Below are positions 7,456 to 39,816 of a stretch of DNA of 64,000 nucleotides, piece after piece (the stretch's first letter is position 1; each line of letters opens with the position of its first letter). The position numbers were made by a program, and so were the translations under genes. The notes beneath the pieces are model-generated. The model searched no databases and was not told the origin of the DNA. It saw only the letters and a list, made by a program, of their open reading frames with translations. The stretch is from Candidatus Sericytochromatia bacterium (GTDB taxonomy: Bacteria; Cyanobacteriota; Sericytochromatia; S15B-MN24; JAQBPE01): the NCBI GenBank assembly GCA_036675505.1, contig JAKFEW010000047.1:8821-72820 (forward strand), read 5' to 3'.

Positions 7456-10200
7456 TCAGAGGCGTTCCTTCGGGATCCGCCGCACCTGGCGGCGCGGAAC
7501 GTCGCGCACGTAGAGGTTGCCCGCGGCATCGAAGCGCAGGTCCTCGGCCCAGCCGATCGAGTCGTCGAGCGACGTCCCGCCGAGCAGCGCGCTGCCCTGG
7601 CCGGCGACGACCTGGGGCTGGCCGTCGGCCGTGCGGCGGCGGATGTGGCGATCGCCGTAGTTGCCCAGCGTGTACGTCGGCGCGTCGCCCTCGTAGAGCC
7701 GCCCCTCGCCGTCCTTCGCCTCCGGCGCCAGCGCGTCGGCGGGCGCCTCGGTGATCGTGCCGTCGTCCGCGATGGCGAAACGGCCCGGCTTCGCGCCGAG
7801 GCCCTTGCGGGCCCGCATCCAGAGCGTGCCGTCGGGCGCGAAGGTCAGCTTCGCGATGTCGTCGAAGCCCGCCGAAGCGGGCACGAGGGTCTCGGCGACG
7901 GCCACGCCCGGCTTCCGGCGCACCACCTCGGCCGTCGTCCCGAAGCCATCGCTCACGGGCACATGCTTCGACGCGACGACCGTGCCGTCAGGCGCCGCGT
8001 CCCAGGCGTGCATCGCGATGTTCCAGGGATTGCCCCAGCTCTCGGCCTGCGTGAGCGCGACCTCCCAGGCGCCGGCGGCGTCCTGGCGCAGGATCAGCTC
8101 GCGGTTCGCGCCGAGCGCGCGGGCCGCGAGCTTCCCCGAGGCGAGCCGCCGCACGCCTGTGAACTGGAGCGCCTCGAGCGCCGCGGGCACGTAGGTCCCC
8201 TTCGCGGCCACCAGCTTCGGCGTGCCGCCCGGCGGGACCTCGAGCAGCGCGCCCGCATCGGCCAGGAAGAGCGTGCCGTCGGGGGCGACGTCCAGGCCCT
8301 TCGGGTAGAGCAGCGAGATCCGGCCATCCGCCGTGAAGCCCATGGGCAGCCCGTCGATGCCCGCCACGATGGTGGACGTTCCGCCGGGCGCTTCGAGGCG
8401 CCGGACGATCGCCGCGCCGAGGTTGTCGCCCATGTCGCAGTCGCTGATGTAGATCTTGCCGTCGTGGCCGGTCCGCGCCCAGGCCAGGCCGTGGCGGAGC
8501 GCCGCGCGGTCGGCGATCGCCTCGTCGCGGCCGTCCGGAGCCAGGCGGTGGATCTTCCCGTCGGCCGCGGCGACGTAGAAGAAGTTGCCGAATACGTCCA
8601 TCGCGGGGTCGTGGCGCGTGCCGTTGACGCTCGCCGCGAGCCGCGGGTCGTCCGCCGCCACCACGTCTTTCGGCGCTTCGGTCGTCGAGACCGCGACGAC
8701 GTGCTCGAACGACCGCGCGAGCCAGCGCGTGCGGCCGGGCAGTTCCACGAGGCCCATCGAGGCGCGCACGCCGGGCGCGTCGGCGAGCTTGGCCTTCGCG
8801 CCGCCGGGCGCCAGGGCCCAGATGGCATCGTCCGTCAGCGTCACGAGCGTGCCGTCCGAGCGCAGGTAGACGCGCGCGTAGAAGCTCTTGCCGAAGGCCG
8901 CCTCGAGCGCCGCGAGGGAGAAGAGCTCGCTGATCGTGCCGTCCGGCTCGAGCCGCCAGACGCCATGCTTGTCCTCCGCCACGATCGGCCGGCCGAGGTC
9001 GTCCACCTGCAGGCTCCAGACGTGTTGAAGCGCGATCTCGGCCGCCTTGCGTCCGCCGCGGGAGGCGGGCTCTTCGGTCGGCGCGGCGACGCCTGACCCT
9101 GCGACGGGCGCGAGCCTGCCGTCGGGCGAAACCCGCCAGATGAGGCCGTCGTCCGAGGCGTAGGTGTAGAGGCTGCCGTCGGCGGCGATGTCGGTCTCGA
9201 AGAGCCGCCGCATGTAGACCTCGGTGGCGGGCAGGCCGGCGCCGAGGTTCGAGACGCCCGCGGCGATCAGGATCTTCTTGACCGTCTCCATCTGGGCGTC
9301 GAAGGCCTGGTCCGTGCGGCGCAGGGCGGTGGCGGCCGCCACGAGCGCCGTGTTCTCCAGCGAGACGGGCGGCGGCGCGGCCGCGAGGGCCGACGCCGCG
9401 AGCGCGACGGTGTCCGCCTCGATGCGCGCCGGCAGCTTGTCGAGCGTGGCCTGGCGGTCCGGCTGCGTGCTCACGTACTGGTCGAGCACGTAGGTCGCGA
9501 CCACCGACGAGGCCAGGTCCACGTCCGCGGCGCGCACGCCGGTGGCGACGAGGCGCGAGAGCGCGCCGGTGCCGCCGGGCGGCGTGGCCCGCAGGATCAC
9601 ATGGCGGCCGGGCAGGGTCGCTGTGAACGCGAAGGTGCCGTCGGCGGCCGTGGTGGCTGTGAGCGGTGCGCCGTCGGGCCCGGTGACGGCCGCGCCCGCG
9701 GCGTCGAGCACCTCGACGCGGGCGCCCGGAATGAAGAACTGCTCGGGGGCGGCTTGCGCGAGGCGGTAGCCGCCGCCGTTGTTGCTCACCAGCCCGCCGC
9801 CGTTGTTGGCGATGATCCCGCCGCCGTTGTTCGCGATGATGCCGGCGCCGCGGTCGGAGATTAGGCCCGAGCCGTTGTTCGACAGCAACGGCGCGGGCGC
9901 CTTGACCTTGCCGGTCAGCGTGGCGGCCGCGAGATCGACCGCGGGCGGCGGGATCGACGCGCCCGCGATGATCGGGGCGGAGGCGCTCGCGAGGGGCGCC
10001 GATGAGGCGGGCGCCCCGGCCGACGGCGCGGTGACAGGGCCGAGCGGCGCCGGTGTGCTCGGTCTACTCGCTGTGCCCGGCGACGTTGCCGACGACGTCC
10101 GCGGCCGGGGCGCGGCGGTGGGCGACGCGGGTGGCGCTGTGCACCCGGCGACCAGCGCGATCGAGGCGGCCAACGGGAGCCAGCGGGTGAAAGCGAGCAT
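7456..10200 (-). CDS. Lipoprotein with NNGGG octapeptide repeats, a carboxypeptidase-regulatory-like domain and a C-terminal NHL/SMP-30-like beta-propeller
   Basis: Lipobox MLAFTRWLPLAASIALVAGC. Pro/Ser/Ala-rich linker. IIANNGGGIIANNGGGLVSNNGGG repeats. ARVEVLDAAGAAVTGPDGAPLTATTAADGTFAFT matches CarbopepD_reg. The C-terminus has NHL-like repeats (...LYVRD..., ...YISDCD...). I trimmed the start to M168 of the ORF-track frame. Confidence 0.75.
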   Translation of the reverse strand: MLAFTRWLPLAASIALVAGCTAPPASPTAAPRPRTSSATSPGTASRPSTPAPLGPVTAPSAGAPASSAPLASASAPIIAGASIPPPAVDLAAATLTGKVKAPAPLLSNNGSGLISDRGAGIIANNGGGIIANNGGGLVSNNGGGYRLAQAAPEQFFIPGARVEVLDAAGAAVTGPDGAPLTATTAADGTFAFTATLPGRHVILRATPPGGTGALSRLVATGVRAADVDLASSVVATYVLDQYVSTQPDRQATLDKLPARIEADTVALAASALAAAPPPVSLENTALVAAATALRRTDQAFDAQMETVKKILIAAGVSNLGAGLPATEVYMRRLFETDIAADGSLYTYASDDGLIWRVSPDGRLAPVAGSGVAAPTEEPASRGGRKAAEIALQHVWSLQVDDLGRPIVAEDKHGVWRLEPDGTISELFSLAALEAAFGKSFYARVYLRSDGTLVTLTDDAIWALAPGGAKAKLADAPGVRASMGLVELPGRTRWLARSFEHVVAVSTTEAPKDVVAADDPRLAASVNGTRHDPAMDVFGNFFYVAAADGKIHRLAPDGRDEAIADRAALRHGLAWARTGHDGKIYISDCDMGDNLGAAIVRRLEAPGGTSTIVAGIDGLPMGFTADGRISLLYPKGLDVAPDGTLFLADAGALLEVPPGGTPKLVAAKGTYVPAALEALQFTGVRRLASGKLAARALGANRELILRQDAAGAWEVALTQAESWGNPWNIAMHAWDAAPDGTVVASKHVPVSDGFGTTAEVVRRKPGVAVAETLVPASAGFDDIAKLTFAPDGTLWMRARKGLGAKPGRFAIADDGTITEAPADALAPEAKDGEGRLYEGDAPTYTLGNYGDRHIRRRTADGQPQVVAGQGSALLGGTSLDDSIGWAEDLRFDAAGNLYVRDVPRRQVRRIPKERL
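9771..9890. repeat. 24-bp tandem repeats (~5 units, 3 well conserved) encoding the NNGGG octapeptide repeats
   Basis: The units gccgccgttgttgctcaccagccc / gccgccgttgttggcgatgatccc / gccgccgttgttcgcgatgatgcc are read directly in the sequence. Confidence 0.7.
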
Positions 10201-10371: not shown

Positions 10372-10728
10372 ATGCTGATCACCAAGACCCCGCCGGCCAC
10401 CATCCCCACGGCGCCCGTGGCGAGCGAGGCGCCCGCGTCGATCGGCACCCCTACGATCAAAGTGTCGCCGGACTCGCTCTTCCTGACGCCGCCTGCGACC
10501 CCCCAGGCCCCGGCCAAAGAGCCGATGAACCGGTACGAGGCCGCGGTGAAGAAGGCGGCCGTGGTCGGCACGATCGTCGGCGGCATCGCCATCACGTCGG
10601 CCGTGTGCATCGCGCTCGCGAGCTCCATGGGCTCGGTCGGCATCGCCGTCCTCGGCGTCGGCCTCGCGGCCGACGCCCTGATGGGCTTGCTGGCCTGGCA
10701 CCTCGTCAAGACGCCGCTGACCAGGTAA
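10372..10728 (+). CDS. Small membrane protein (two predicted TM helices), hypothetical
   Basis: 118 aa with very strong GC3 bias in the + frame. AAGGAG lies upstream. The C-terminal half is hydrophobic (AAVVGTIVGGIAITSAVCIALA...IAVLGVGLAADALMGLLAW). I preferred it over the overlapping antisense ORF 10269..10709. Confidence 0.5.
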   Translation: MLITKTPPATIPTAPVASEAPASIGTPTIKVSPDSLFLTPPATPQAPAKEPMNRYEAAVKKAAVVGTIVGGIAITSAVCIALASSMGSVGIAVLGVGLAADALMGLLAWHLVKTPLTR

Positions 10729-10750: not shown

Positions 10751-12016
10751 CTAGAAGCGCCCGTGTTCGACGAAGCGCTCGAAGGCGTCGCAGGCCGCTG
10801 TCACGCCGTCCTCGGCACGGAGCAGCCGCCCCAGCGCCGCGGCCCGCGCCTGCATCGCTTCCGAGCTCACCGCCTCTTGGATCGCGGCGCCCAGACCCGC
10901 GGCCGTCAGCGTCTGCTGCGGCACCGGCCGCGGCCCGACGCCGAGCGCGTGGACGCGCCGGCCCCAGAAGGGCTGGTCCGCGAAGTAGGGCGCGATCACC
11001 GAGGGCACGCCCGCGCGCAGGCCGGCGGCGGTGGTGCCGGCGCCGCCGTGGTGCACCACCGCCGCACAGCGCGGGAAGAGCCAGTCGTGCGGCACGTCAT
11101 GCACGACCTTCACGTGGTCGGGCACGTCGCCAGCGCCGAGCCCGGCCCAGCCCGAAAGCACGATGCCGCGCCGGCCGGCGAGCCGCAGCGCTTCGTAGAC
11201 GTTGTGCGCGAGCCGGACCGGGTCGCGGCCGATCATGCTGCCGAAGCCCACGTAGACGGGCGGCTCGCCGGCCGCGAGGAAGGCGGTCAGGTCGGGCGGC
11301 GGCGTCCAGTCGGCCTGGGCGTCGAGGAACCAGAACCCGGTGACACTCGCGTGCGCCGGCCAGTCCGCAGGCCTGGGGAGCACGTGCGGGCTGAAGCCGT
11401 ACATGGCCGACATCACCGCCTGCCGGCCGAGGCTGAGGCCGCCCAACGGCAGCACCTGCATCCCCAGGCGCCGGCGCCACCGATTCAAGGGCGCCATGAG
11501 GCCGACCGAGGCGACATGGAGCACCGCCTGGTGGCTGAGCCAGTTGAGGTCGCCGGGCAAGCTGAGCCAGTCCGGCGAGATCGGGAAGGGGAACTCGCGG
11601 GTCGCCGTGAGCGGCACCGGCCCGGCCATCAGCGCGGGGATCCCGCGCGCCTCGGCGAAGTCGAGGGCGGGAAACGCCAACGGCGCATAAATCACCGCCT
11701 CGGCATCGGCGACGGCCGCGTGCACGGTCTCGAAGATCGGCTCGAGAAGCGGCACCATCAGCGTGCGAAAGTGCCTCACGAAGGCCACCGGGTTGGCGGC
11801 TGACTCGAGCCAGGCGAGCCCCGCGTCGCCCGCGAGCATGGCCTGCGGGTCGCCGGCGATCGCGCGGAAGCCCAGGCCGTGGCGGCGCACGAAGCCCTCG
11901 AAGGGGGCATGGGTCGCGAGCGTCACGGCGTGACCGCGGGCCGCGAGGCCGCGCCCGAGCGCGACATAGGGTTGGACGTCGCCGCGCGAGCCTGCGGTGA
12001 TGATCGCGATGCGCAT
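10751..12016 (-). CDS. Family-1 glycosyltransferase (MGT/UDP-glycosyltransferase, sterol/macrolide GT-like)
   Basis: The N-terminus reads MRIAIITAGSRGDVQPYVALGRGLAARGHAVTLATHAPF. The C-terminal UDP-sugar-binding region is HHGGAGTTAAGLRAGVPSVIAPYFADQPFW. AGGAGG lies before the ATG at 12016. Confidence 0.85.
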   Translation of the reverse strand: MRIAIITAGSRGDVQPYVALGRGLAARGHAVTLATHAPFEGFVRRHGLGFRAIAGDPQAMLAGDAGLAWLESAANPVAFVRHFRTLMVPLLEPIFETVHAAVADAEAVIYAPLAFPALDFAEARGIPALMAGPVPLTATREFPFPISPDWLSLPGDLNWLSHQAVLHVASVGLMAPLNRWRRRLGMQVLPLGGLSLGRQAVMSAMYGFSPHVLPRPADWPAHASVTGFWFLDAQADWTPPPDLTAFLAAGEPPVYVGFGSMIGRDPVRLAHNVYEALRLAGRRGIVLSGWAGLGAGDVPDHVKVVHDVPHDWLFPRCAAVVHHGGAGTTAAGLRAGVPSVIAPYFADQPFWGRRVHALGVGPRPVPQQTLTAAGLGAAIQEAVSSEAMQARAAALGRLLRAEDGVTAACDAFERFVEHGRF

Positions 12017-22991: not shown

Positions 22992-24167
22992 CTACTTGCC
23001 CTTGCCCTTGCCCTTGTCGCCCGACGCGTCGCCCGCAGGGCCATCGTCGTCCCCGTCGTCGTCGTCGCCGTCGTCGTCGCCCGAGCCGCTGCCGTGCCCA
23101 GCGCCGCCCGACGGGGTGTCACCCGCCGGCGCGTTGCCGGCACCCGCGCCACTGCTGCCACCGCCTGCGGCGCCGCTGCCACTCTGGTCGCCGCCGCCGT
23201 GTTCGGTCGGGGCGGCCGGCGTGGCGGGCTGCGCCGGTTGCGCGGCGTTGCCCGGCTCAGCAGGCTGCGCGGGCGTCGCGGGTTGGGCCGGCGTCGCGCC
23301 GTTGTCGCGCGGGGCTTCCTGCGGCGCCGCGGCGGCCGCCTTCTTCGCTTCATCGGCAGCCGCCTGCTTCTCCACTTCGGCGGCCTGCTTCGCCTCGGCG
23401 ACGGCGGCCAGGGCGGCCTGGGCGGCTTCGGGCCGCTTCTCGAGTGCCTTCTCGAGCGCCTTGTCGGCCGAGCCGCCCGGCTTGAGATCGATCTGGATCT
23501 CGCCGGCGTCGGAGGCGGCCTTTACGGCGTCTTCGAGGGCCTTCAGCTTGTCGGGCTTGATCTGGGCGAGCTCCTTGGGATCCTTGAGCTTCGCGCGCAC
23601 GCCGTCGGAGACCGCCGTCGAGACCGGGTCGACGCGCAGCTCTTCGGCCGCGTTGGCCTTCATCAGGCGGCCGAGCCGGAAGCCCTTGCCGCGAATCTCG
23701 ATGAAGGCGACGGTTCCTTCGGGCACGCCCGCGAGCGAGAATTTGCCCAGGGTGTCGGTCTTGGCCGGCGCCACGCCGGGGAAGGGCCGGCCGTCTGCGG
23801 CCAAAAGCACGACCTCGGCATCCGGCACAGGCGCGAGCGCCTCGGCGGCGAGCAGGCCGAATCGCGGGACGCTCAGCGAGCCGCCGCCATTCGCGACGAT
23901 CGAGCTGCCGCCGTTCGTGACGATCGAGCCGCCGCCATTCGCGACGATCGAGCCGCCGCCGTTCGCAATCACCGAGCCGCCGCCGTTTGCGATGACGCTC
24001 GCGGGGGCCTGGGCCACGCCGCCAATCATGATCTTGGGGGCGATCCGGGCCGCGGGGCCACTGACGCGGTTTTCTACGAGGCCGCCGTCGGGTTTGGTCA
24101 GGCTCGGCGGCTGACACGCGGTCAGCACCAGGGCGAGCGGAAGAGCCAACGGCCAGGCACGCAACAT
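22992..24167 (-). CDS. Lipoprotein with ANGGGS octapeptide repeats and a carboxypeptidase-regulatory-like domain (paralog of 7456-10200 and 36629-38296)
   Basis: Lipobox LALVLTAC. VIANGGGSVIANGGGSIVANGGGSIVTNGGSSIVANGGGS repeats. AEVVLLAADGRPFPGVAPAKTDTLGKFSLAGVPEGTVAFIEIRGKG matches CarbopepD_reg. The C-terminus has an Ala/Lys/Glu coiled-coil-like region and a Gly/Asp-rich tail. I took the start at the second ATG (24167), which has a GAAAGGGGG RBS. Confidence 0.7.
   Translation of the reverse strand: MLRAWPLALPLALVLTACQPPSLTKPDGGLVENRVSGPAARIAPKIMIGGVAQAPASVIANGGGSVIANGGGSIVANGGGSIVTNGGSSIVANGGGSLSVPRFGLLAAEALAPVPDAEVVLLAADGRPFPGVAPAKTDTLGKFSLAGVPEGTVAFIEIRGKGFRLGRLMKANAAEELRVDPVSTAVSDGVRAKLKDPKELAQIKPDKLKALEDAVKAASDAGEIQIDLKPGGSADKALEKALEKRPEAAQAALAAVAEAKQAAEVEKQAAADEAKKAAAAAPQEAPRDNGATPAQPATPAQPAEPGNAAQPAQPATPAAPTEHGGGDQSGSGAAGGGSSGAGAGNAPAGDTPSGGAGHGSGSGDDDGDDDDGDDDGPAGDASGDKGKGKGK
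23877..23996. repeat. 24-bp tandem repeat x5 encoding the ANGGGS repeats
   Basis: The units gagccgccgccattcgcgacgatc / gagctgccgccgttcgtgacgatc / gagccgccgccattcgcgacgatc / gagccgccgccgttcgcaatcacc / gagccgccgccgtttgcgatgacg are read directly in the sequence. Confidence 0.8.
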
Positions 24168-24252
24168 CAGGATCCCCCTTTCCATACGGAAGTCCTATAC
24201 CCGAACCCTTGCCTGGTTGACACAGCGGGGCGCGGTCCGTCCGGTCATCGCC

Positions 24253-25882: not shown

Positions 25883-25954
25883 GCCCCGATGGTCTAGTGG
25901 TTAGGACACCACCCTTTCAAGGTGGTAACACGGGTTCAATTCCCGTTCGGGGTA
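25883..25954 (+). tRNA. tRNA-Glu (anticodon TTC)
   Basis: Cloverleaf folded by hand. The acceptor pairs gccccga with tcggggt (G1-U72 wobble). The D-arm is gtct/agtggttaggac. The anticodon stem is ccacc/ggtgg and the loop is cTTTCaa. The T-arm is acggg/ttcaatt/cccgt. The discriminator is A and there is no encoded CCA. It resembles the E. coli tRNA-Glu architecture. Confidence 0.85.
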
Positions 25955-25966
25955 CTCGCTTTCTGG

Positions 25967-35445: not shown

Positions 35446-35852
35446 GCGGGCATCGTAGCATGAGGCCAACCCCGCCCAAACCCTCTGTTCGCCGCTGGGC
35501 CTGGAGCCGGCCGGTTGTGCCCACGCCCGTGGCGGAGCGGTCGCGGCCGGGCGGCCGACTCGCCTTCCAGGGCGGGCAGCGGGAAGAACCCGTAGCGGTC
35601 ATACCAGGCCACCGCCGGAGGCTTGGCGTCGACGACGATGCCCACGCATCCCACTGCGTCGGCCTGCGTCAACGCGAGATGGATCACCGCATGCAGCAAC
35701 GTACTACCGATCCCTCGCCCTTGGGCGGCCTTGCCGATATGGTGGCGAAACTGGTTCTGGCCGGCGTATTTGAGGAAGAAGCGGTCGAGATCGGCATCGC
35801 CGCTCGTGAAGGCGGTGCGGTGGTCCTGTTCTCGGAGTGCCCTAACTTCCAT
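35442..35852 (-). pseudogene. TacT/AtaT-like GNAT toxin remnant with a ~50-aa internal deletion and a run-on C-terminus
   Basis: It aligns to Salmonella TacT in two blocks. HRTAFTSGDADLDRFFLKYAGQN matches [23 protein letters not shown], and HAVIHLALTQADAVGCVGIVVDAKPPAVAWYDRYGFFPL matches [40 protein letters not shown]. The ~50 residues between them, which span the central beta-strands, are missing. The last ~45 codons read through into the HK promoter region. Confidence 0.5.
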
Positions 35853-35958
35853 GCCGCTTCATCAAGGCTCGCAACGCCGGCGTCGGCTGCGGCGCTTCCA
35901 TCTGCTGCAACATCGCTTCCGCCGCCTCCGAAACACGGGCGTTGATTTGCACAGCCAT
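35842..35958 (-). CDS. Truncated RHH/DUF1778-like (TacA-like) antitoxin remnant (38 aa)
   Basis: MAVQINARVSEAAEAMLQQ... matches the TacA N-terminus (VQLNLRAKESQRALIDAAAE). GAGGTGA RBS. It overlaps the toxin ATG by 11 nt. It is below the ORF-track size cutoff. Confidence 0.4.
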   Translation of the reverse strand: MAVQINARVSEAAEAMLQQMEAPQPTPALRALMKRHGS

Positions 35959-36065
35959 CGCCAATCACCTCACCAGGAGGGCGAGCACGCCTCATAGCCC
36001 TGGCGATGATGATGGGTGTTCATGGTAACGTGGGGCCGTCGCCCCCGCATCCAGGAGCCTTCAGC

Positions 36066-36560
36066 ATGTCACCCGACGACACCCTCACCACGCCCGTCCA
36101 GTCCTCCCTCGCCCGCCTGATCGGGGAGTGGGTCGGCACGACAAGCACCCGCTTCATGCCCACGGACGCGTTCGAAACCTGCGAGGTGAAGGCGAGCATG
36201 CGCTGGGTGGCGAACGGCACGTTCGTCCTCCACGAGTACGACGGGCGCTTCAACGGTGAGGAAGCTCAAGGCGCGGCCTTCTACGGCATCGACCCCGAGA
36301 GCGGGGAAGGCTCGGCGGCCTGGGTCGACAGCTTCCACTCGAGCGCCGCCCCGATGCTCTCGAAGGGCCAGGCCGCGCCCGGCGAGATCCTGAACGTGAC
36401 GACGACCTACGGGGACCCGGCCGAGCCGTGGGGCTGGCAGACCGTCATCACCGAGCAGGGGCCGGACGCGATCATGATCGAGGCCTACAACATCCCGTTC
36501 GGCCGCGAGCGCTACGTCGCGATCGAAACCAAGCTCCGGCGCGCGTCCGCGCGGGCCTGA
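36066..36560 (+). CDS. DUF1579-like hypothetical protein
   Basis: 164 aa. The pattern (GEWVGTTSTRF...FETCEVKASMRWVANGTFVLHEYDG...) matches DUF1579-family proteins by recollection only. Confidence 0.4.
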   Translation: MSPDDTLTTPVQSSLARLIGEWVGTTSTRFMPTDAFETCEVKASMRWVANGTFVLHEYDGRFNGEEAQGAAFYGIDPESGEGSAAWVDSFHSSAAPMLSKGQAAPGEILNVTTTYGDPAEPWGWQTVITEQGPDAIMIEAYNIPFGRERYVAIETKLRRASARA

Positions 36561-36628
36561 AGCCGTCGCCGCCGGGACCGCCGCCGCCGGCCTGTGATCC
36601 GCTCCACCGCGCCGTGAGGAGGACCGCC

Positions 36629-38296
36629 GTGTCGCGTCCGATCGCCCCTGGAATCGCTCTGGTGCTCGCGCTCTCGGGCCCGCTCGGCGGCTGCGCCGGC
36701 GGCGGCCAGCCGCCCGCGCCGGCGCCGCGAGCCAGCGGGAAGCCGGCGATCGCGAGGCCCGGGGCCTCCCTGGTCGAGCTGGAAGGGCGCGTGCTCGCCA
36801 CGGCCACGCTGATTTCGGACAAGGGCGGCGCCATCCTGTCGAACAACGGCGCGGGCATCGTCTCCAACAACGGCGGCGCGCTCACGGCCAAGGTGAAGCT
36901 GGCGCTGGCGCAGGCCGCGGAGCCGTGGCAGCTGGTCGAGAAGGCCGAGGTCGAGCTGGTGGACGCGGCCGACCGGCCCGCGCCGGGCGTCGCGCCCGTG
37001 CGCACGGACGGCACCGGACGCTACCGCCTCCAGGCCCCGCCCGGCACCTGGTTGGTGCGCGTGAAGGCCAACGGCGTGCGGCTCAGCGCCTTCGTCCGCA
37101 TCGGCGCGGCGGCCACGAAGGCGGACGTCTCGCCGGCCACGACCGTGGTCGCCGAGTACGTCCGCGAGCAAGCGAAGGCCAGCCAGGCCGCGTTGGAATC
37201 GGTCGCCGAGGCCTCGGTCGCGGCGCTGGTCGCGCGCGTGGAGCCCGTGCTGCGGTCCGGCGCGGTGGCGCTGGAGCTGGCGTCCCCGGCGGCGGCGGTG
37301 AAGGTGCTGGAGCGTGCCGCGGCGGCCGAGCCGCTGGTGAAGACCCAGGCCGCGGCGGTCGCGGCCGAGCTGGGCGTCGCCTTGGCCGGCGCCGGCGCGC
37401 GGCCCTCGACGGCGCCGACCAGCGTGCCCGGGGAACCCTCGCCCAAGCCGGCCTCGACCCCCACGCCGGGCGCGACCCCCACCCCCGACCCGCTGCTCGG
37501 CACCATCATCGCCGGGCAGGCCCAGCTGGATCCGAAGCCGGCGTCAGCGGCGGACGCGGCCGACGCCGTCGGCGTGGACCTCGGCGTGCCGGACAGCCTG
37601 GCCGTCGCCGCCGACGGCACCGTGTTCTTCACCAGCCCGGCCGGCACGCTGCGGGCCATCACCCCCGCCGGGGCCTACGTCGCGGCGCCGCTGGCCGCGC
37701 CGATCGGCTCCCGGCTCGCCACCTTGAACGGCGACGCGCTGTTCGTCGACGCCGCCCGCACGGGCATCGTCGCCGTCGCATCCGGCGCCGGCCCGTTGCA
37801 GGTCCGCCGGCTCGTGGCGGTGAAGGGGGCGCCGCTGCCCGCCGGGGCGCCGCTCGCGGCGGCGGGGGACGGCACCTTCCTCGTCGGGCACACGCGCATC
37901 GGCGTCGACGGCGTCCAGGCGGATCTCCTGGCCACCTCCGCGAGCCTGGCGGGCAAGGCGGAGCCCCAGGCGGGCACGTTGCCGTCGGCCCTGGCGTACG
38001 GCGTGGGCGGCCGGCTCTTCGCCGGGTACGGCGCGAAGGACGCCAGCGGGAACGTCTACGAGGTGCTGTCCGGCGGGCAGATCCTCGCCACCTACGGGTC
38101 CTCGACGACGTGGACCCTCGCCACGGACCGGGCGGGGCGGCTGGTCATGTCGCAGGGGGGCCGGGTCTCGCGCCGCGACGGGCCGGGGGCGAGCGTCGAG
38201 CTCGCGCGGGGGCTGGCTTGCGGGGCGATCGCCTTCGCGCCCGACGGTACGCTCTACTACGTCGACGTCGGCGCCATCCGGCGGCTCAAGCCGTAG
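36629..38296 (+). CDS. Lipoprotein with SNNGAG repeats, a carboxypeptidase-regulatory-like domain and a C-terminal beta-propeller-like region (third paralog)
   Basis: GAGGAGG RBS before the GTG at 36629. Lipobox LALSGPLGGCAG. ILSNNGAGIVSNNGGAL repeats. AEVELVDAADRPAPGVAPVRTDGTGRYRLQAPPGTWLVRVKANG matches CarbopepD_reg. Confidence 0.7.
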   Translation: MSRPIAPGIALVLALSGPLGGCAGGGQPPAPAPRASGKPAIARPGASLVELEGRVLATATLISDKGGAILSNNGAGIVSNNGGALTAKVKLALAQAAEPWQLVEKAEVELVDAADRPAPGVAPVRTDGTGRYRLQAPPGTWLVRVKANGVRLSAFVRIGAAATKADVSPATTVVAEYVREQAKASQAALESVAEASVAALVARVEPVLRSGAVALELASPAAAVKVLERAAAAEPLVKTQAAAVAAELGVALAGAGARPSTAPTSVPGEPSPKPASTPTPGATPTPDPLLGTIIAGQAQLDPKPASAADAADAVGVDLGVPDSLAVAADGTVFFTSPAGTLRAITPAGAYVAAPLAAPIGSRLATLNGDALFVDAARTGIVAVASGAGPLQVRRLVAVKGAPLPAGAPLAAAGDGTFLVGHTRIGVDGVQADLLATSASLAGKAEPQAGTLPSALAYGVGGRLFAGYGAKDASGNVYEVLSGGQILATYGSSTTWTLATDRAGRLVMSQGGRVSRRDGPGASVELARGLACGAIAFAPDGTLYYVDVGAIRRLKP

Positions 38297-38655
38297 CCGG
38301 CAGGGCGTAACGAGCCGAGTTGGTCCGCATGTTCAAGATGCCCGTCTCGTGGCGATGTTCCGGCACGTTCTGGCCGATCGACCAGGGGCCGTACTCGTCC
38401 GCGTAGGCCAGGTGCGAGAACAACGTGTAGCCAAGGTCGGTAGAGCCCGCACGAGCAACGCGAACCCCGAGAGGGCAGCCGCCAACGCGCCTCGCGTGAT
38501 CCGGTCCGCCGGTCCGCCGGTCCGCCAACTCGATCAGATCGGACCATTTTTCCGGAGCGTGTGTCAATAATGGCTGGAGATCCAGTCGTGGAGCCGATTT
38601 TATTGAATCCGGCATTCGCGTTATAGTGGCGCCCTTCGACAAAGGGGGTGACCAG

Positions 38656-39609
38656 ATGAACGCCTACGTGCTCGGTTTTCGGGAAATCGACAAGACGAGC
38701 GCCACAGTGGTTGGGGGTAAAGGCGCCAACCTGGCCGAGATTTCCAGGCTTGAAGGGATATGCGTGCCAGATGGCTTTTGTGTTTCGGTGGAGGCCTTCA
38801 AACGGGTCTTCGGGGCATCCTCGGCGGTAGTTGGGCTGCTCGACCGGTTGTCGCGCTTGACCATGACAGACCGGAATGAACTCAGGGAGCTTTGCGGCGA
38901 GATCCGCCGGGTCATCGAGGGGATCGCCATTCCTGGCGAAATCGAGGCCGCGATCACCCGCCATCTCGCCAGGCTTGGTGCGGAGAATGCCTATGCCGTC
39001 CGCTCCAGCGCAACCGCAGAGGATTCGCCGACGGCCTCTTTTGCGGGCCAGCAGGATACCTACCTGAACGTGATCGGCAAGGAAGCCGTCCTTGCGCATA
39101 TCAGCAAGTGCTGGGCTTCGCTGTTCACGGAACGCGCGGTCGTCTACCGCCTTCAAAACGGCTTCGACCACCGCGACGTTCACCTGGCCGTGGTCGTCCA
39201 GCGGATGATCTCGGCGCAGGCGGCCGGCGTCTTGTTCACGGCCGATCCCCTCACGTCCGACAGGAAGGTGGCGTCCATCGATGCCGGCTTCGGGCTCGGT
39301 GAAGACATGGTCGCCGGCCTGGTGAATGTGGACGCCTACAAGGTGCGTGACGGCGAGGTCATCGCCAAGAAGGTCGCCACCGACACGCCCGCGCTGACGG
39401 ATGGGCAGATCCGCCGGCTCGAGCACATCGGCCGGAAGCTCGAGGCGCACTTCGGCTGCCCCCAGGACATCGAGTGGTGCCTGGCCGACGACACGCTCCA
39501 CCTCGTCCAGAGCCGGCCCATCACCACCTTGTTTCCCATCCCCGAGGCCAGCGATGGGCAACGCATTCGCGTGGATGGTACCGAAGGGTATGTCGAAATC
39601 CTTGCCTGA
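38656..39609 (+). CDS. PEP-utilising enzyme N-terminal ATP-binding domain protein (PPDK_N/rifampicin-phosphotransferase-like N-domain only)
   Basis: GGKGANLAEISRLEGICVPDGFCVS...VRSSATAEDSPTASFAGQQDTYLNV...LAVVVQRMISAQAAGVLFTADPLT are conserved ATP-grasp blocks of pyruvate phosphate dikinase / PEP synthase N-terminal domains. The gene ends after ~320 aa with no phospho-His or PEP-binding domains. Confidence 0.65.
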   Translation: MNAYVLGFREIDKTSATVVGGKGANLAEISRLEGICVPDGFCVSVEAFKRVFGASSAVVGLLDRLSRLTMTDRNELRELCGEIRRVIEGIAIPGEIEAAITRHLARLGAENAYAVRSSATAEDSPTASFAGQQDTYLNVIGKEAVLAHISKCWASLFTERAVVYRLQNGFDHRDVHLAVVVQRMISAQAAGVLFTADPLTSDRKVASIDAGFGLGEDMVAGLVNVDAYKVRDGEVIAKKVATDTPALTDGQIRRLEHIGRKLEAHFGCPQDIEWCLADDTLHLVQSRPITTLFPIPEASDGQRIRVDGTEGYVEILA

Positions 39610-39816
39610 ATGGAATGTGGCCGCCTCACCAGGGCACGATCTACGAGTTCACGACCGACGGCGCGCGTGCAGCTGGACGACGCGTCTTTCGCCGGCAACC
39701 TGCGGTGTCGCTGCTGTAGTTCAGCCCGACTGGTAAGGACGGGCTTGACGCTCGACTGCGGCGACCGCCAGGCGGCGCAGAGCGAAGTCTCGAAGCTCTG
39801 CTGAGGGTAGTTCCGC

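Follow-up and report, generated by a model that had tools for sequence, protein, structure and literature searches.

Three lipoproteins encoded in a 64,000-nucleotide stretch of contig JAKFEW010000047.1 from a Candidatus Sericytochromatia bacterium (the whole of this stretch is the window in what follows), here called P1, P2 and P3, share an N-terminal module in which an array of eight-residue units accompanies a transthyretin-like beta-sandwich, and they belong to a genuine family of considerable size that is restricted to one lineage. Structural models and profile matches make it most likely that the array of P1 and P3 is inserted between strands 1 and 2 of the sandwich and is no inter-domain spacer, and it is probably structured in the mature protein. 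Our proposal is that each lipoprotein would be lipid-anchored, on a disordered Pro/Ala/Ser tether, followed by the conserved module, i.e., a transthyretin-like (CarboxypepD_reg-type) beta-sandwich and then a helical bundle, with the octapeptide array of P1 and P3 separating strand 1 (LTGKVKAP or LEGRVLAT) from strand 2 as a structured, selectable element. The module would present a variable C-terminal part (two NHL-type propellers in P1, one in P3, a helical region and acidic tail in P2), and would serve, itself non-catalytic, as a stalk or docking element by which putative ligand-binding propellers are positioned in the cell envelope. To this whole package, architecture, inserted structured array and stalk or docking module together, we give a probability of about 0.55.

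An earlier reading of the window, made from its letters without database searches (the sequence-only reading), had placed three lipoprotein genes at 7456-10200, 22992-24167 and 36629-38296, and both coordinates and strands hold. The genes, their export signals and the P1 tether are as follows.

7456..10200, minus strand: P1 gene, a 914-residue lipoprotein (P0006); open reading frame and start, exact protein in a public collection
10141..10200, minus strand: P1 signal peptide, residues 1-20, lipobox VAGC, read from the sequence
9919..10140, minus strand: P1 Pro/Ala/Ser/Thr-rich tether, residues 21-94, from composition and AlphaFold2 confidence
22992..24167, minus strand: P2 gene, a 391-residue lipoprotein, with an alternative ATG at 24185
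24114..24167, minus strand: P2 signal peptide, lipobox LTAC, from the sequence
36629..38296, plus strand: P3 gene, a 555-residue lipoprotein (P0007), a called gene in the public collection
36629..36694, plus strand: P3 signal peptide, lipobox LGGC, from the sequence

P1 and P3 are already called, with exactly the same starts, in the public protein collection, where they derive from an 87.5-kb NCBI contig. P2 has no entry there with either start, its residues 1-276 gave no match as a protein-search query, and its third-codon-position GC content is 0.88. For the P3 region, a separate public assembly, probably of the same sample as the window, has DNA with 100% identity along 3,668 bp (window 35629-39296, which covers the gene). 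All three N-termini conform to the signal-peptidase-II lipobox (PROSITE PS51257-type: a positive n-region, a hydrophobic h-region and the ending [LVI][ASTVIG][GAS]-C), reading MLAFTRWLPLAASIALVAG-C in P1, MLRAWPLALPLALVLTA-C in P2 and VSRPIAPGIALVLALSGPLGG-C in P3, and a lipobox is present in most full-length homologues too; from these signals, export and lipid anchoring through the lipobox cysteine are predicted for P1, P2 and P3. Residues 1-83 of P1 have an AlphaFold2 confidence (predicted local distance difference test, pLDDT) below 50, at about 30-40 per ten-residue block, so that its tether is probably disordered.

The common order that had been noted, lipobox, Pro/Ala/Ser linker, octapeptide array and CarboxypepD_reg-like domain, can be read in all three sequences, and to that list we add a helical region after the sandwich, which completes the shared module. 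Pairwise identities among the three are 25-31% overall and 32-34% within the module, values that mark them as old paralogues and dispose of the idea, which the sequence-only reading had itself raised, that they might be duplicates created by assembly.

The arrays were delimited from the sequence, by Tandem Repeats Finder and by a motif scan.

9769..9888, minus strand: P1 array, five octapeptide units, residues 105-144
23877..23996, minus strand: P2 array, five units of the form (V/I)(I/V)(A/T)NGG(G/S)S
36809..36880, plus strand: P3 array, three units

In order, the P1 units are LLSNNGSG, LISDRGAG, IIANNGGG, IIANNGGG and LVSNNGGG, those of P2 are VIANGGGS (twice), IVANGGGS, IVTNGGSS and IVANGGGS, and those of P3 are LISDKGGA, ILSNNGAG and IVSNNGGA, which gives the consensus [LIV][IVL][SA][ND]NGGG. 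A loose two-unit DNA pattern matched seven times in the window, always within the three arrays, and in none of 100 dinucleotide-preserving shuffles; a six-frame motif scan of the 64-kb window likewise gave no copies beyond the three arrays. At the DNA level, Tandem Repeats Finder reported 24-bp arrays at 9770-9850, 23877-23992 and 36815-36879 with 84%, 85% and 73% matches for P1, P2 and P3, respectively, and neighbouring units share 14, 15, 23 and 17 of 24 bases in P1, 21, 19, 21 and 21 in P2, and 15 and 17 in P3. The units are thus not the exact 24-bp tandem copies for which they had been taken. In addition, peptide-identical units in P2 differ at three synonymous bases, which indicates that most units are old and have been kept by selection on the protein, and that the arrays are unlikely to be a hot slippage tract.

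The octapeptide repeat is new to the databases and literature searched. Natural arrays in isolation and synthetic ones (including one of eight units) found nothing meaningful in Pfam at expectation values (E) up to 10, so that no known Pfam repeat accounts for it; scans of the full proteins against Pfam and NCBIfam gave nothing for the repeat, and NCBIfam no meaningful match of any kind to them; and a PDB sequence search with a nine-unit array returned chance-level matches only (E >0.4). A full-text search for the repeat strings retrieved DNA primers only, with no description of the repeat, and nothing relevant was found in the literature on Sericytochromatia NHL lipoproteins. The sequence-only reading, which knew of no such repeat family, was right on this point. 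The parts that accompany the repeat, i.e., the lipoprotein, the transthyretin-like domain and the NHL-type propeller, are of known kinds. An N-glycosylation sequon was considered for the repeat and rejected, since the consensus NNGGG contains no N-x-S/T.

The position of the array was addressed with PF13620 (CarboxypepD_reg; clan Transthyretin, prealbumin-like or CnaB-type domains) and with two AlphaFold2 models, one of P1 residues 69-353, built on an alignment of the module (A5) with 32 sequences from the window proteins and homologues, and one of full P1 with 35 sequences. The parts of the module around the array are as follows.

9895..9918, minus strand: P1 LTGKVKAP, sandwich strand 1, residues 95-102; a strand in both models, at PF13620 position 1 after array excision
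9526..9768, minus strand: remainder of the P1 transthyretin-like (CarboxypepD_reg-type) beta-sandwich, residues 145-225
9241..9516, minus strand: P1 helical bundle, residues 229-320; AlphaFold2, conserved across the family
23643..23876, minus strand: P2 CarboxypepD_reg-like beta-sandwich; PF13620 E = 5e-4 (residues 111-167), aligns with P1 and P3
23298..23642, minus strand: P2 helical, Ala/Lys/Glu-rich region; sequence, and alignment with the P1 and P3 helical regions
36779..36802, plus strand: P3 LEGRVLAT, putative strand 1; aligns with LTGKVKAP, at PF13620 position 2 after array excision
36881..37138, plus strand: P3 LTAKVKLALAQA bracket and CarboxypepD_reg-like beta-sandwich; PF13620 E = 2e-5, 30.9 bits after array excision
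37139..37492, plus strand: P3 helical region and Pro-rich linker (linker 37394-37492); alignment with P1, and sequence

The carboxypeptidase-regulatory-like domain of the sequence-only reading reappears as a sub-threshold PF13620 match in all three full proteins (E = 0.01, 5e-4 and 2e-5; 16.6, 20.7 and 25.1 bits for P1, P2 and P3). As long as the array is present, these matches start at profile position 11-14, with strand 1 missing; when it is excised in silico the match reaches position 1 in P1 and position 2 in P3 with a gain of 3-5 bits, the scores of the excised proteins being 24.7, 24.1 and 30.9 bits. The models agree with this: LTGKVKAP is a beta-strand in both (pLDDT ~88-92), residues 154-218 form a beta-sandwich at pLDDT >90, the modelled domain conforming to the transthyretin-like seven-strand sandwich fold, and residues 229-311 form five helices, at least ~80 in each ten-residue block and mostly >90, in a region that is conserved across the family. 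A confidently modelled strand on the far side of the array, together with the extension of the profile match upon excision, would place the array of P1 and P3 in the connection between strands 1 and 2, and not between domains, as the sequence-only reading had supposed in treating it as a spacer. In PF13620 domains this connection is normally about eight residues long, whereas here it would hold 45-90 residues of octapeptide units; the conserved helical bundle after the sandwich is another departure of the window family from those domains. In many homologues segments of the L(T/I)GK(V/T)K type flank the array on both sides, and extra units can precede the first bracket. A Lys-Asn isopeptide bond as in CnaB pilins was ruled out, since the lysine of LTGKVK is R, V or T in homologues.

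How the array itself might fold is suggested by low-confidence beta-bridges at positions 2-3 of four successive units, spaced at eight residues, in P1 residues 114-138 (window ~9787-9861), which hint at unit stacking in the models. The AlphaFold2 prediction that had been recommended for the array yielded a bridge every eight residues and a pLDDT below 50. Under our proposal, the array would be a stack in which tight [ND]-x-G turns connect short strands (G-G-phi-phi-S/A), and would project from the sandwich as a beta-meander or as a beta-roll with two units per coil; the period-8 bridges of both low-confidence models would fit either form. In known short-period solenoids and rolls two units make one coil, and the RTX repeats, the ice-nucleation octapeptide/16-mer and the 7-8-residue units of Lolium ice-binding protein likewise combine a short unit, one or two aliphatics and Gly/Asn turns; the Asn column of the array also recalls Asn ladders. 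The array differs from all of these in having no sequence match, only 2-10 units and low AlphaFold2 confidence.

The wider family was surveyed at two levels. An exhaustive profile search with the module through 1.84 billion representative proteins produced 3600 matches at E up to 1e-3, 170 of them below 1e-30. Its very long top matches cover only the sandwich part, repeated, and about 100 clusters of 860-990 residues match the whole module near the N-terminus and have the P1 architecture in common; local re-scoring showed that at least 120 proteins (up to 1150 residues) carry the module. The 629 units counted automatically in 120 proteins, at 1-10 per protein with a mode of five, have L (41%), I (34%) or V (20%) at position 1; I (55%), V (27%) or L (12%) at position 2; S (58%) or A (23%) at position 3; N (58%) or D (31%) at position 4; N (64%) at position 5; G (81%) at position 6; G (60%) or A (23%) at position 7; and G (56%) or S (20%) at position 8. 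Homologues to which a stricter pattern assigned 0-2 units proved on inspection to have at least two variant units, e.g., FISDAGSG, and every sequence inspected by eye carries an array of at least two.

At the DNA level, the pattern [ND]NGGG-phi-phi-x-[ND]NGGG was scanned against one genome per species for 185,579 species and matched at 19 loci. Eighteen are in metagenome-assembled genomes (MAGs) of Sericytochromatia (RYN_339 with 12, EUL_180 with three, isolate 241672 with one and isolate 1783137 with two), the same MAGs from which the named P1 homologues come. The sole other match (L011, 3497-3534, in the Deltaproteobacteria MAG JAFGIB010000274.1) is to a different repeat, a period-8 Gly-rich LFGN[DN]GGG of at least nine units at a contig end. 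The lipoprotein superfamily is essentially confined to Sericytochromatia in current genome collections, as the sequence-only reading had surmised in calling it lineage-specific. Within the lineage it has expanded: one MAG alone has at least 12 two-unit pattern matches, and the window has three members within 30 kb. All 17 complete array-bearing open reading frames at these loci have a lipobox-like signal peptide, read by eye. Among eight that are unlike P1 in architecture, a Pfam scan found five that end in NHL-type propellers, one with TIG and an SGL/Vgb-type propeller, and two with no match. Three of the Sericytochromatia loci hold lipoprotein arrays without the sandwich.

L002 1602-1687, L004 3569-3654 and L008 3129-3214: arrays of 5-7 LIANNGGG units, followed by YR(I/L/V)LQ

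The L002 protein ends in NHL repeats by Pfam, and the C-terminal sequence of that from L004 is likewise NHL-like.

The number of units is not invariant among relatives. P1 has five, and its orthologues P0155 (79% identity), P0156 (73%) and P0157 (71%) have six, four and three, respectively; more distant orthologues have two, and in a collection of ~15 billion proteins the nearest relative stands at 79% identity. A comparison of the DNA showed that all four orthologues keep the first two units in place and three of the four the last (LVSNNGGG-type) one, and that the central IIANNGGG-type unit is present once, twice or three times in copies that are identical at 22-23 of 24 bases. Based on these near-identical central copies between conserved ends, the number changes by in-frame duplication or deletion of whole central units. 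Unit-number change thus occurs in whole 24-bp units and on an evolutionary time scale. That the number could vary without a frameshift had been anticipated correctly; the exact 24-bp units on which slippage was to act were not borne out.

C-terminal to the module the three proteins diverge, as had been described.

7474..9201, minus strand: P1 tandem NHL-type beta-propeller region, residues 334-909; AlphaFold2, Foldseek and Pfam matches of homologues
22995..23297, minus strand: P2 Pro/Ala/Gln-rich segment and Gly/Asp-rich acidic tail, from the sequence
37493..38293, plus strand: P3 C-terminal single beta-propeller; hhalign, and a weak TEN_NHL match

Residues 334-909 of P1 are all-beta in the AlphaFold2 model, with a pLDDT mostly of 85-95. 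Foldseek with the full model gave as its top match the bacterial teneurin-like protein 9ifo (E 1.3e-17), followed by Bacteroides hybrid two-component tandem-propeller sensors (BT4663) and PorZ (E ~1e-13 to 1e-14), with Pizza6, a designed six-bladed NHL-like propeller (template-modelling (TM) score ~0.68 over ~300 columns), teneurin NHL domains and Vgb lyase among its further matches. Since the region is 576 residues long, two six-bladed NHL-type propellers are the most likely reading of this model, in which the four-stranded blades and six blades per propeller are features of a prediction and the blade number was estimated from strand lists, not from coordinates. P1 itself stays below the gathering scores of NHL (PF01436; 12.6 bits versus a cut-off of 20) and TEN_NHL (PF25021; 11.6 versus 27.1), as does P3 for TEN_NHL (13.7 bits). 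Precomputed PF01436 and PF25021 matches are present in P1 homologues at 30-47% identity, and PF08450 and PF24684 matches occur in P1 homologues as well; the source records call these proteins 'hypothetical protein', 'repeat containing protein' or 'sugar lactone lactonase YvrE'. An hhalign comparison (probability 94.5%, E = 7.6e-8) matches the C-terminal 267 residues of P3 with the first propeller of the P1 family profile, which makes P3 a one-propeller relative of P1. P2 has no propeller; its sandwich is followed by the helical Ala/Lys/Glu-rich region, the Pro/Ala/Gln-rich segment and the Gly/Asp acidic tail. A fourth lipoprotein gene (P0008; 21813-22826, minus strand; 337 residues, lipobox LAGC) follows immediately downstream of P2 in the same orientation; its product has no Pfam match and ends in a poly-acidic tail (DDGEDDEADDDDD...) that resembles the P2 tail GDDDGDDDDGDDDG; P2 and P0008 may form a two-gene unit.

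The architecture of P1 invites comparison with two known systems. In the teneurin super-fold an NHL propeller is preceded by a transthyretin-related domain (PMC5851990), and P1, predicted to be extracytoplasmic as well, has a transthyretin-like domain upstream of an NHL-type propeller, has 9ifo as its best Foldseek match and has homologues that match Pfam TEN_NHL. The global TM-score between P1 and the teneurin-like protein is, however, only 0.18, and P1 would have two propellers, ending with the second in the AlphaFold2 model, as well as a helical bundle, and would be anchored by lipid and not by a transmembrane helix. Pfam searches at E up to 1 found no YD/RHS shell, FN-plug or toxin domain in P1, which, lacking the YD shell that defines teneurins, is not a teneurin. 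The BT4663 sensor (PDB 4a2l) and PorZ (PDB 5m11) resemble P1 in having two consecutive propellers over ~600-700 residues in a periplasmic or surface protein; they differ in that sequence identity is 10-13%, their propellers are seven-bladed Reg_prop whereas those of P1 are NHL-like and probably six-bladed, and P1 has neither a kinase nor a type IX secretion C-terminal domain. Since the BT4663 sensor binds glycan, a binding role for the P1 propellers is plausible, and by analogy with other tandem-propeller envelope proteins their ligand may be a glycan or a wall polymer; the cell-surface adhesin or receptor role suggested in the sequence-only reading is conjectural.

The case that the array is probably structured comes from what has been kept, namely the aliphatic pair, the small residue, the [ND]-x-G and the glycines, together with the synonymous differences between units of identical peptide sequence. 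Several observations weigh against the proposal as a whole. Every PF13620 score, with or without the array, is below the curated gathering score of 32.3 bits, and the P2 match gains no strand 1 upon excision; the arrays at L002, L004 and L008 come without the LTGKVK strand or the CarboxypepD_reg-like domain, which means that the array is not obligatorily a loop of that domain; and the gene neighbourhoods of P1, P2 and P3 offer no functional clue, their genes (a cation efflux protein, a response regulator, DUF1579, a histidine kinase and a PLD-like protein) being unrelated. The array (residues 105-150) has a pLDDT below 50 in both models, and unit counts show no parity preference, which argues against a strict closure of two units per coil. 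These last two points, along with the high Gly and Asn content, a unit number that ranges freely from 1 to 10, and the tolerance of close orthologues for three to six units, are also what would be expected if the array were a flexible loop or linker, rich in Gly and Asn and intrinsically disordered, that drifts in length and serves for spacing only. We consider this unlikely, if well worth keeping in mind, because a mere spacer would hardly hold two aliphatics, Asn/Asp and Gly at fixed positions through 629 units, be present in all 120 proteins counted, or show synonymous differences of a kind that points to selection on the peptide; moreover, exposed Asn-Gly in disordered chains deamidates quickly, so that a coil could retain it only at a cost.

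The sandwich-free arrays at L002, L004 and L008 suggest a different departure from the proposal, in which the array works independently of the sandwich as a self-contained structural repeat, a minimal hairpin stack or beta-roll, and is a length-adjustable docking or ruler element that ties the large NHL-propeller lipoprotein family to a lineage-specific component of the Sericytochromatia envelope; on present evidence we regard it as rather improbable. More doubtful still is that the array is a lineage-specific signal for envelope targeting or anchoring (outer-membrane or surface sorting, or wall-polymer binding), largely independent of the domain that follows. The lipobox-like signal peptide on every complete array-bearing reading frame of the genome scan, the constant position of the array near the N-terminus after the tether, and the differing downstream modules, including those of the three proteins without the CarboxypepD_reg-like domain, could be read in this way, but they are associations only, which superfamily ancestry fits equally well given that nearly all of the same proteins carry NHL-type propellers, and no dedicated transport or partner gene is conserved beside the window genes. 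The idea of contingency loci, in which frequent slipped-strand changes within a population would make an exposed adhesin or antigen longer or shorter, is about as improbable. It draws on unit numbers that differ among orthologues through near-identical central units, always in frame; against it, the 24-bp units are imperfect, with just one near-identical adjacent pair in the window, the differences were seen between genomes that are 21-29% divergent in protein and not within a population, and the second assembly of the P3 region, probably of the same sample, is 100% identical over 3.7 kb. Least credible is an RTX-kind calcium-binding beta-roll or another known beta-solenoid such as the ice-nucleation octapeptide, to which the array is likened by a Gly-rich, short-period unit with Asp/Asn and aliphatics, and by Asp at position 4 in 31% of units. 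The RTX nonapeptide GGxGxDxUx has a period of nine, not eight, a different motif order and Asp where the array mostly has Asn; the ice-nucleation octapeptide (PF00818, AGYGSTxT-type) forms long arrays, not ones of 2-10 units; and neither HemolysinCabind, Ice_nucleation nor any other Pfam repeat matched at E up to 10, nor any PDB sequence.

The proposal of an inserted, structured array in a stalk or docking module has a particular setting, as Sericytochromatia are the non-photosynthetic sister lineage of oxygenic Cyanobacteria, known almost only from metagenome bins, and to our knowledge nothing is known of their cell envelope. In these lipoproteins, ordinary parts (a lipid anchor, a transthyretin-like domain and NHL-type propellers) are joined with a repeat for which the databases have no entry, and repeat and module together would well merit an entry of their own as a repeat or domain. 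If the array is structured, it would represent a new short-period repeat class, a natural loop-embedded array of tunable length and a convenient sequence by which to recognise the lineage; should it be no more than a flexible loop, what is left would be a new domain-of-unknown-function entry.

Other features of the window were noted alongside these genes. Upstream of P1, on the same strand, is a GT1/GT28-type glycosyltransferase gene (10769-12016, minus strand); the Glyco_transf_28/UDPGT/EryCIII-like_C gene that precedes the P1 orthologue in L020 shares 75% identity with it. Beside the 71% orthologue in L022 it is not conserved, and a functional link with P1 was rejected, since the synteny is limited to the closest orthologue. 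The gap between P1 and the glycosyltransferase is ~570 bp in the window versus 84 bp in L020, and it contains a small open reading frame of high third-position GC content on the plus strand (10372-10728) that is predicted to encode a membrane protein. On the far side of P2 from P0008, 24253-25521 (minus strand) encodes a cation-diffusion-facilitator transporter (PF01545 and ZT_dimer) whose N- and C-termini are unusually rich in His (HHHHHH; HHGHDHHHHDDGHDHHHDHHHGH). A tRNA-Glu gene (anticodon ttc) at 25883-25955 (plus strand) is the sole RNA gene in the window by ARAGORN and Rfam. Finally, the GC content drops to 57-67% at window ~38300-39800, versus ~75% in the flanks, in a stretch where a public gene call carries PF01326 (PPDK_N) and which may be horizontally acquired DNA.

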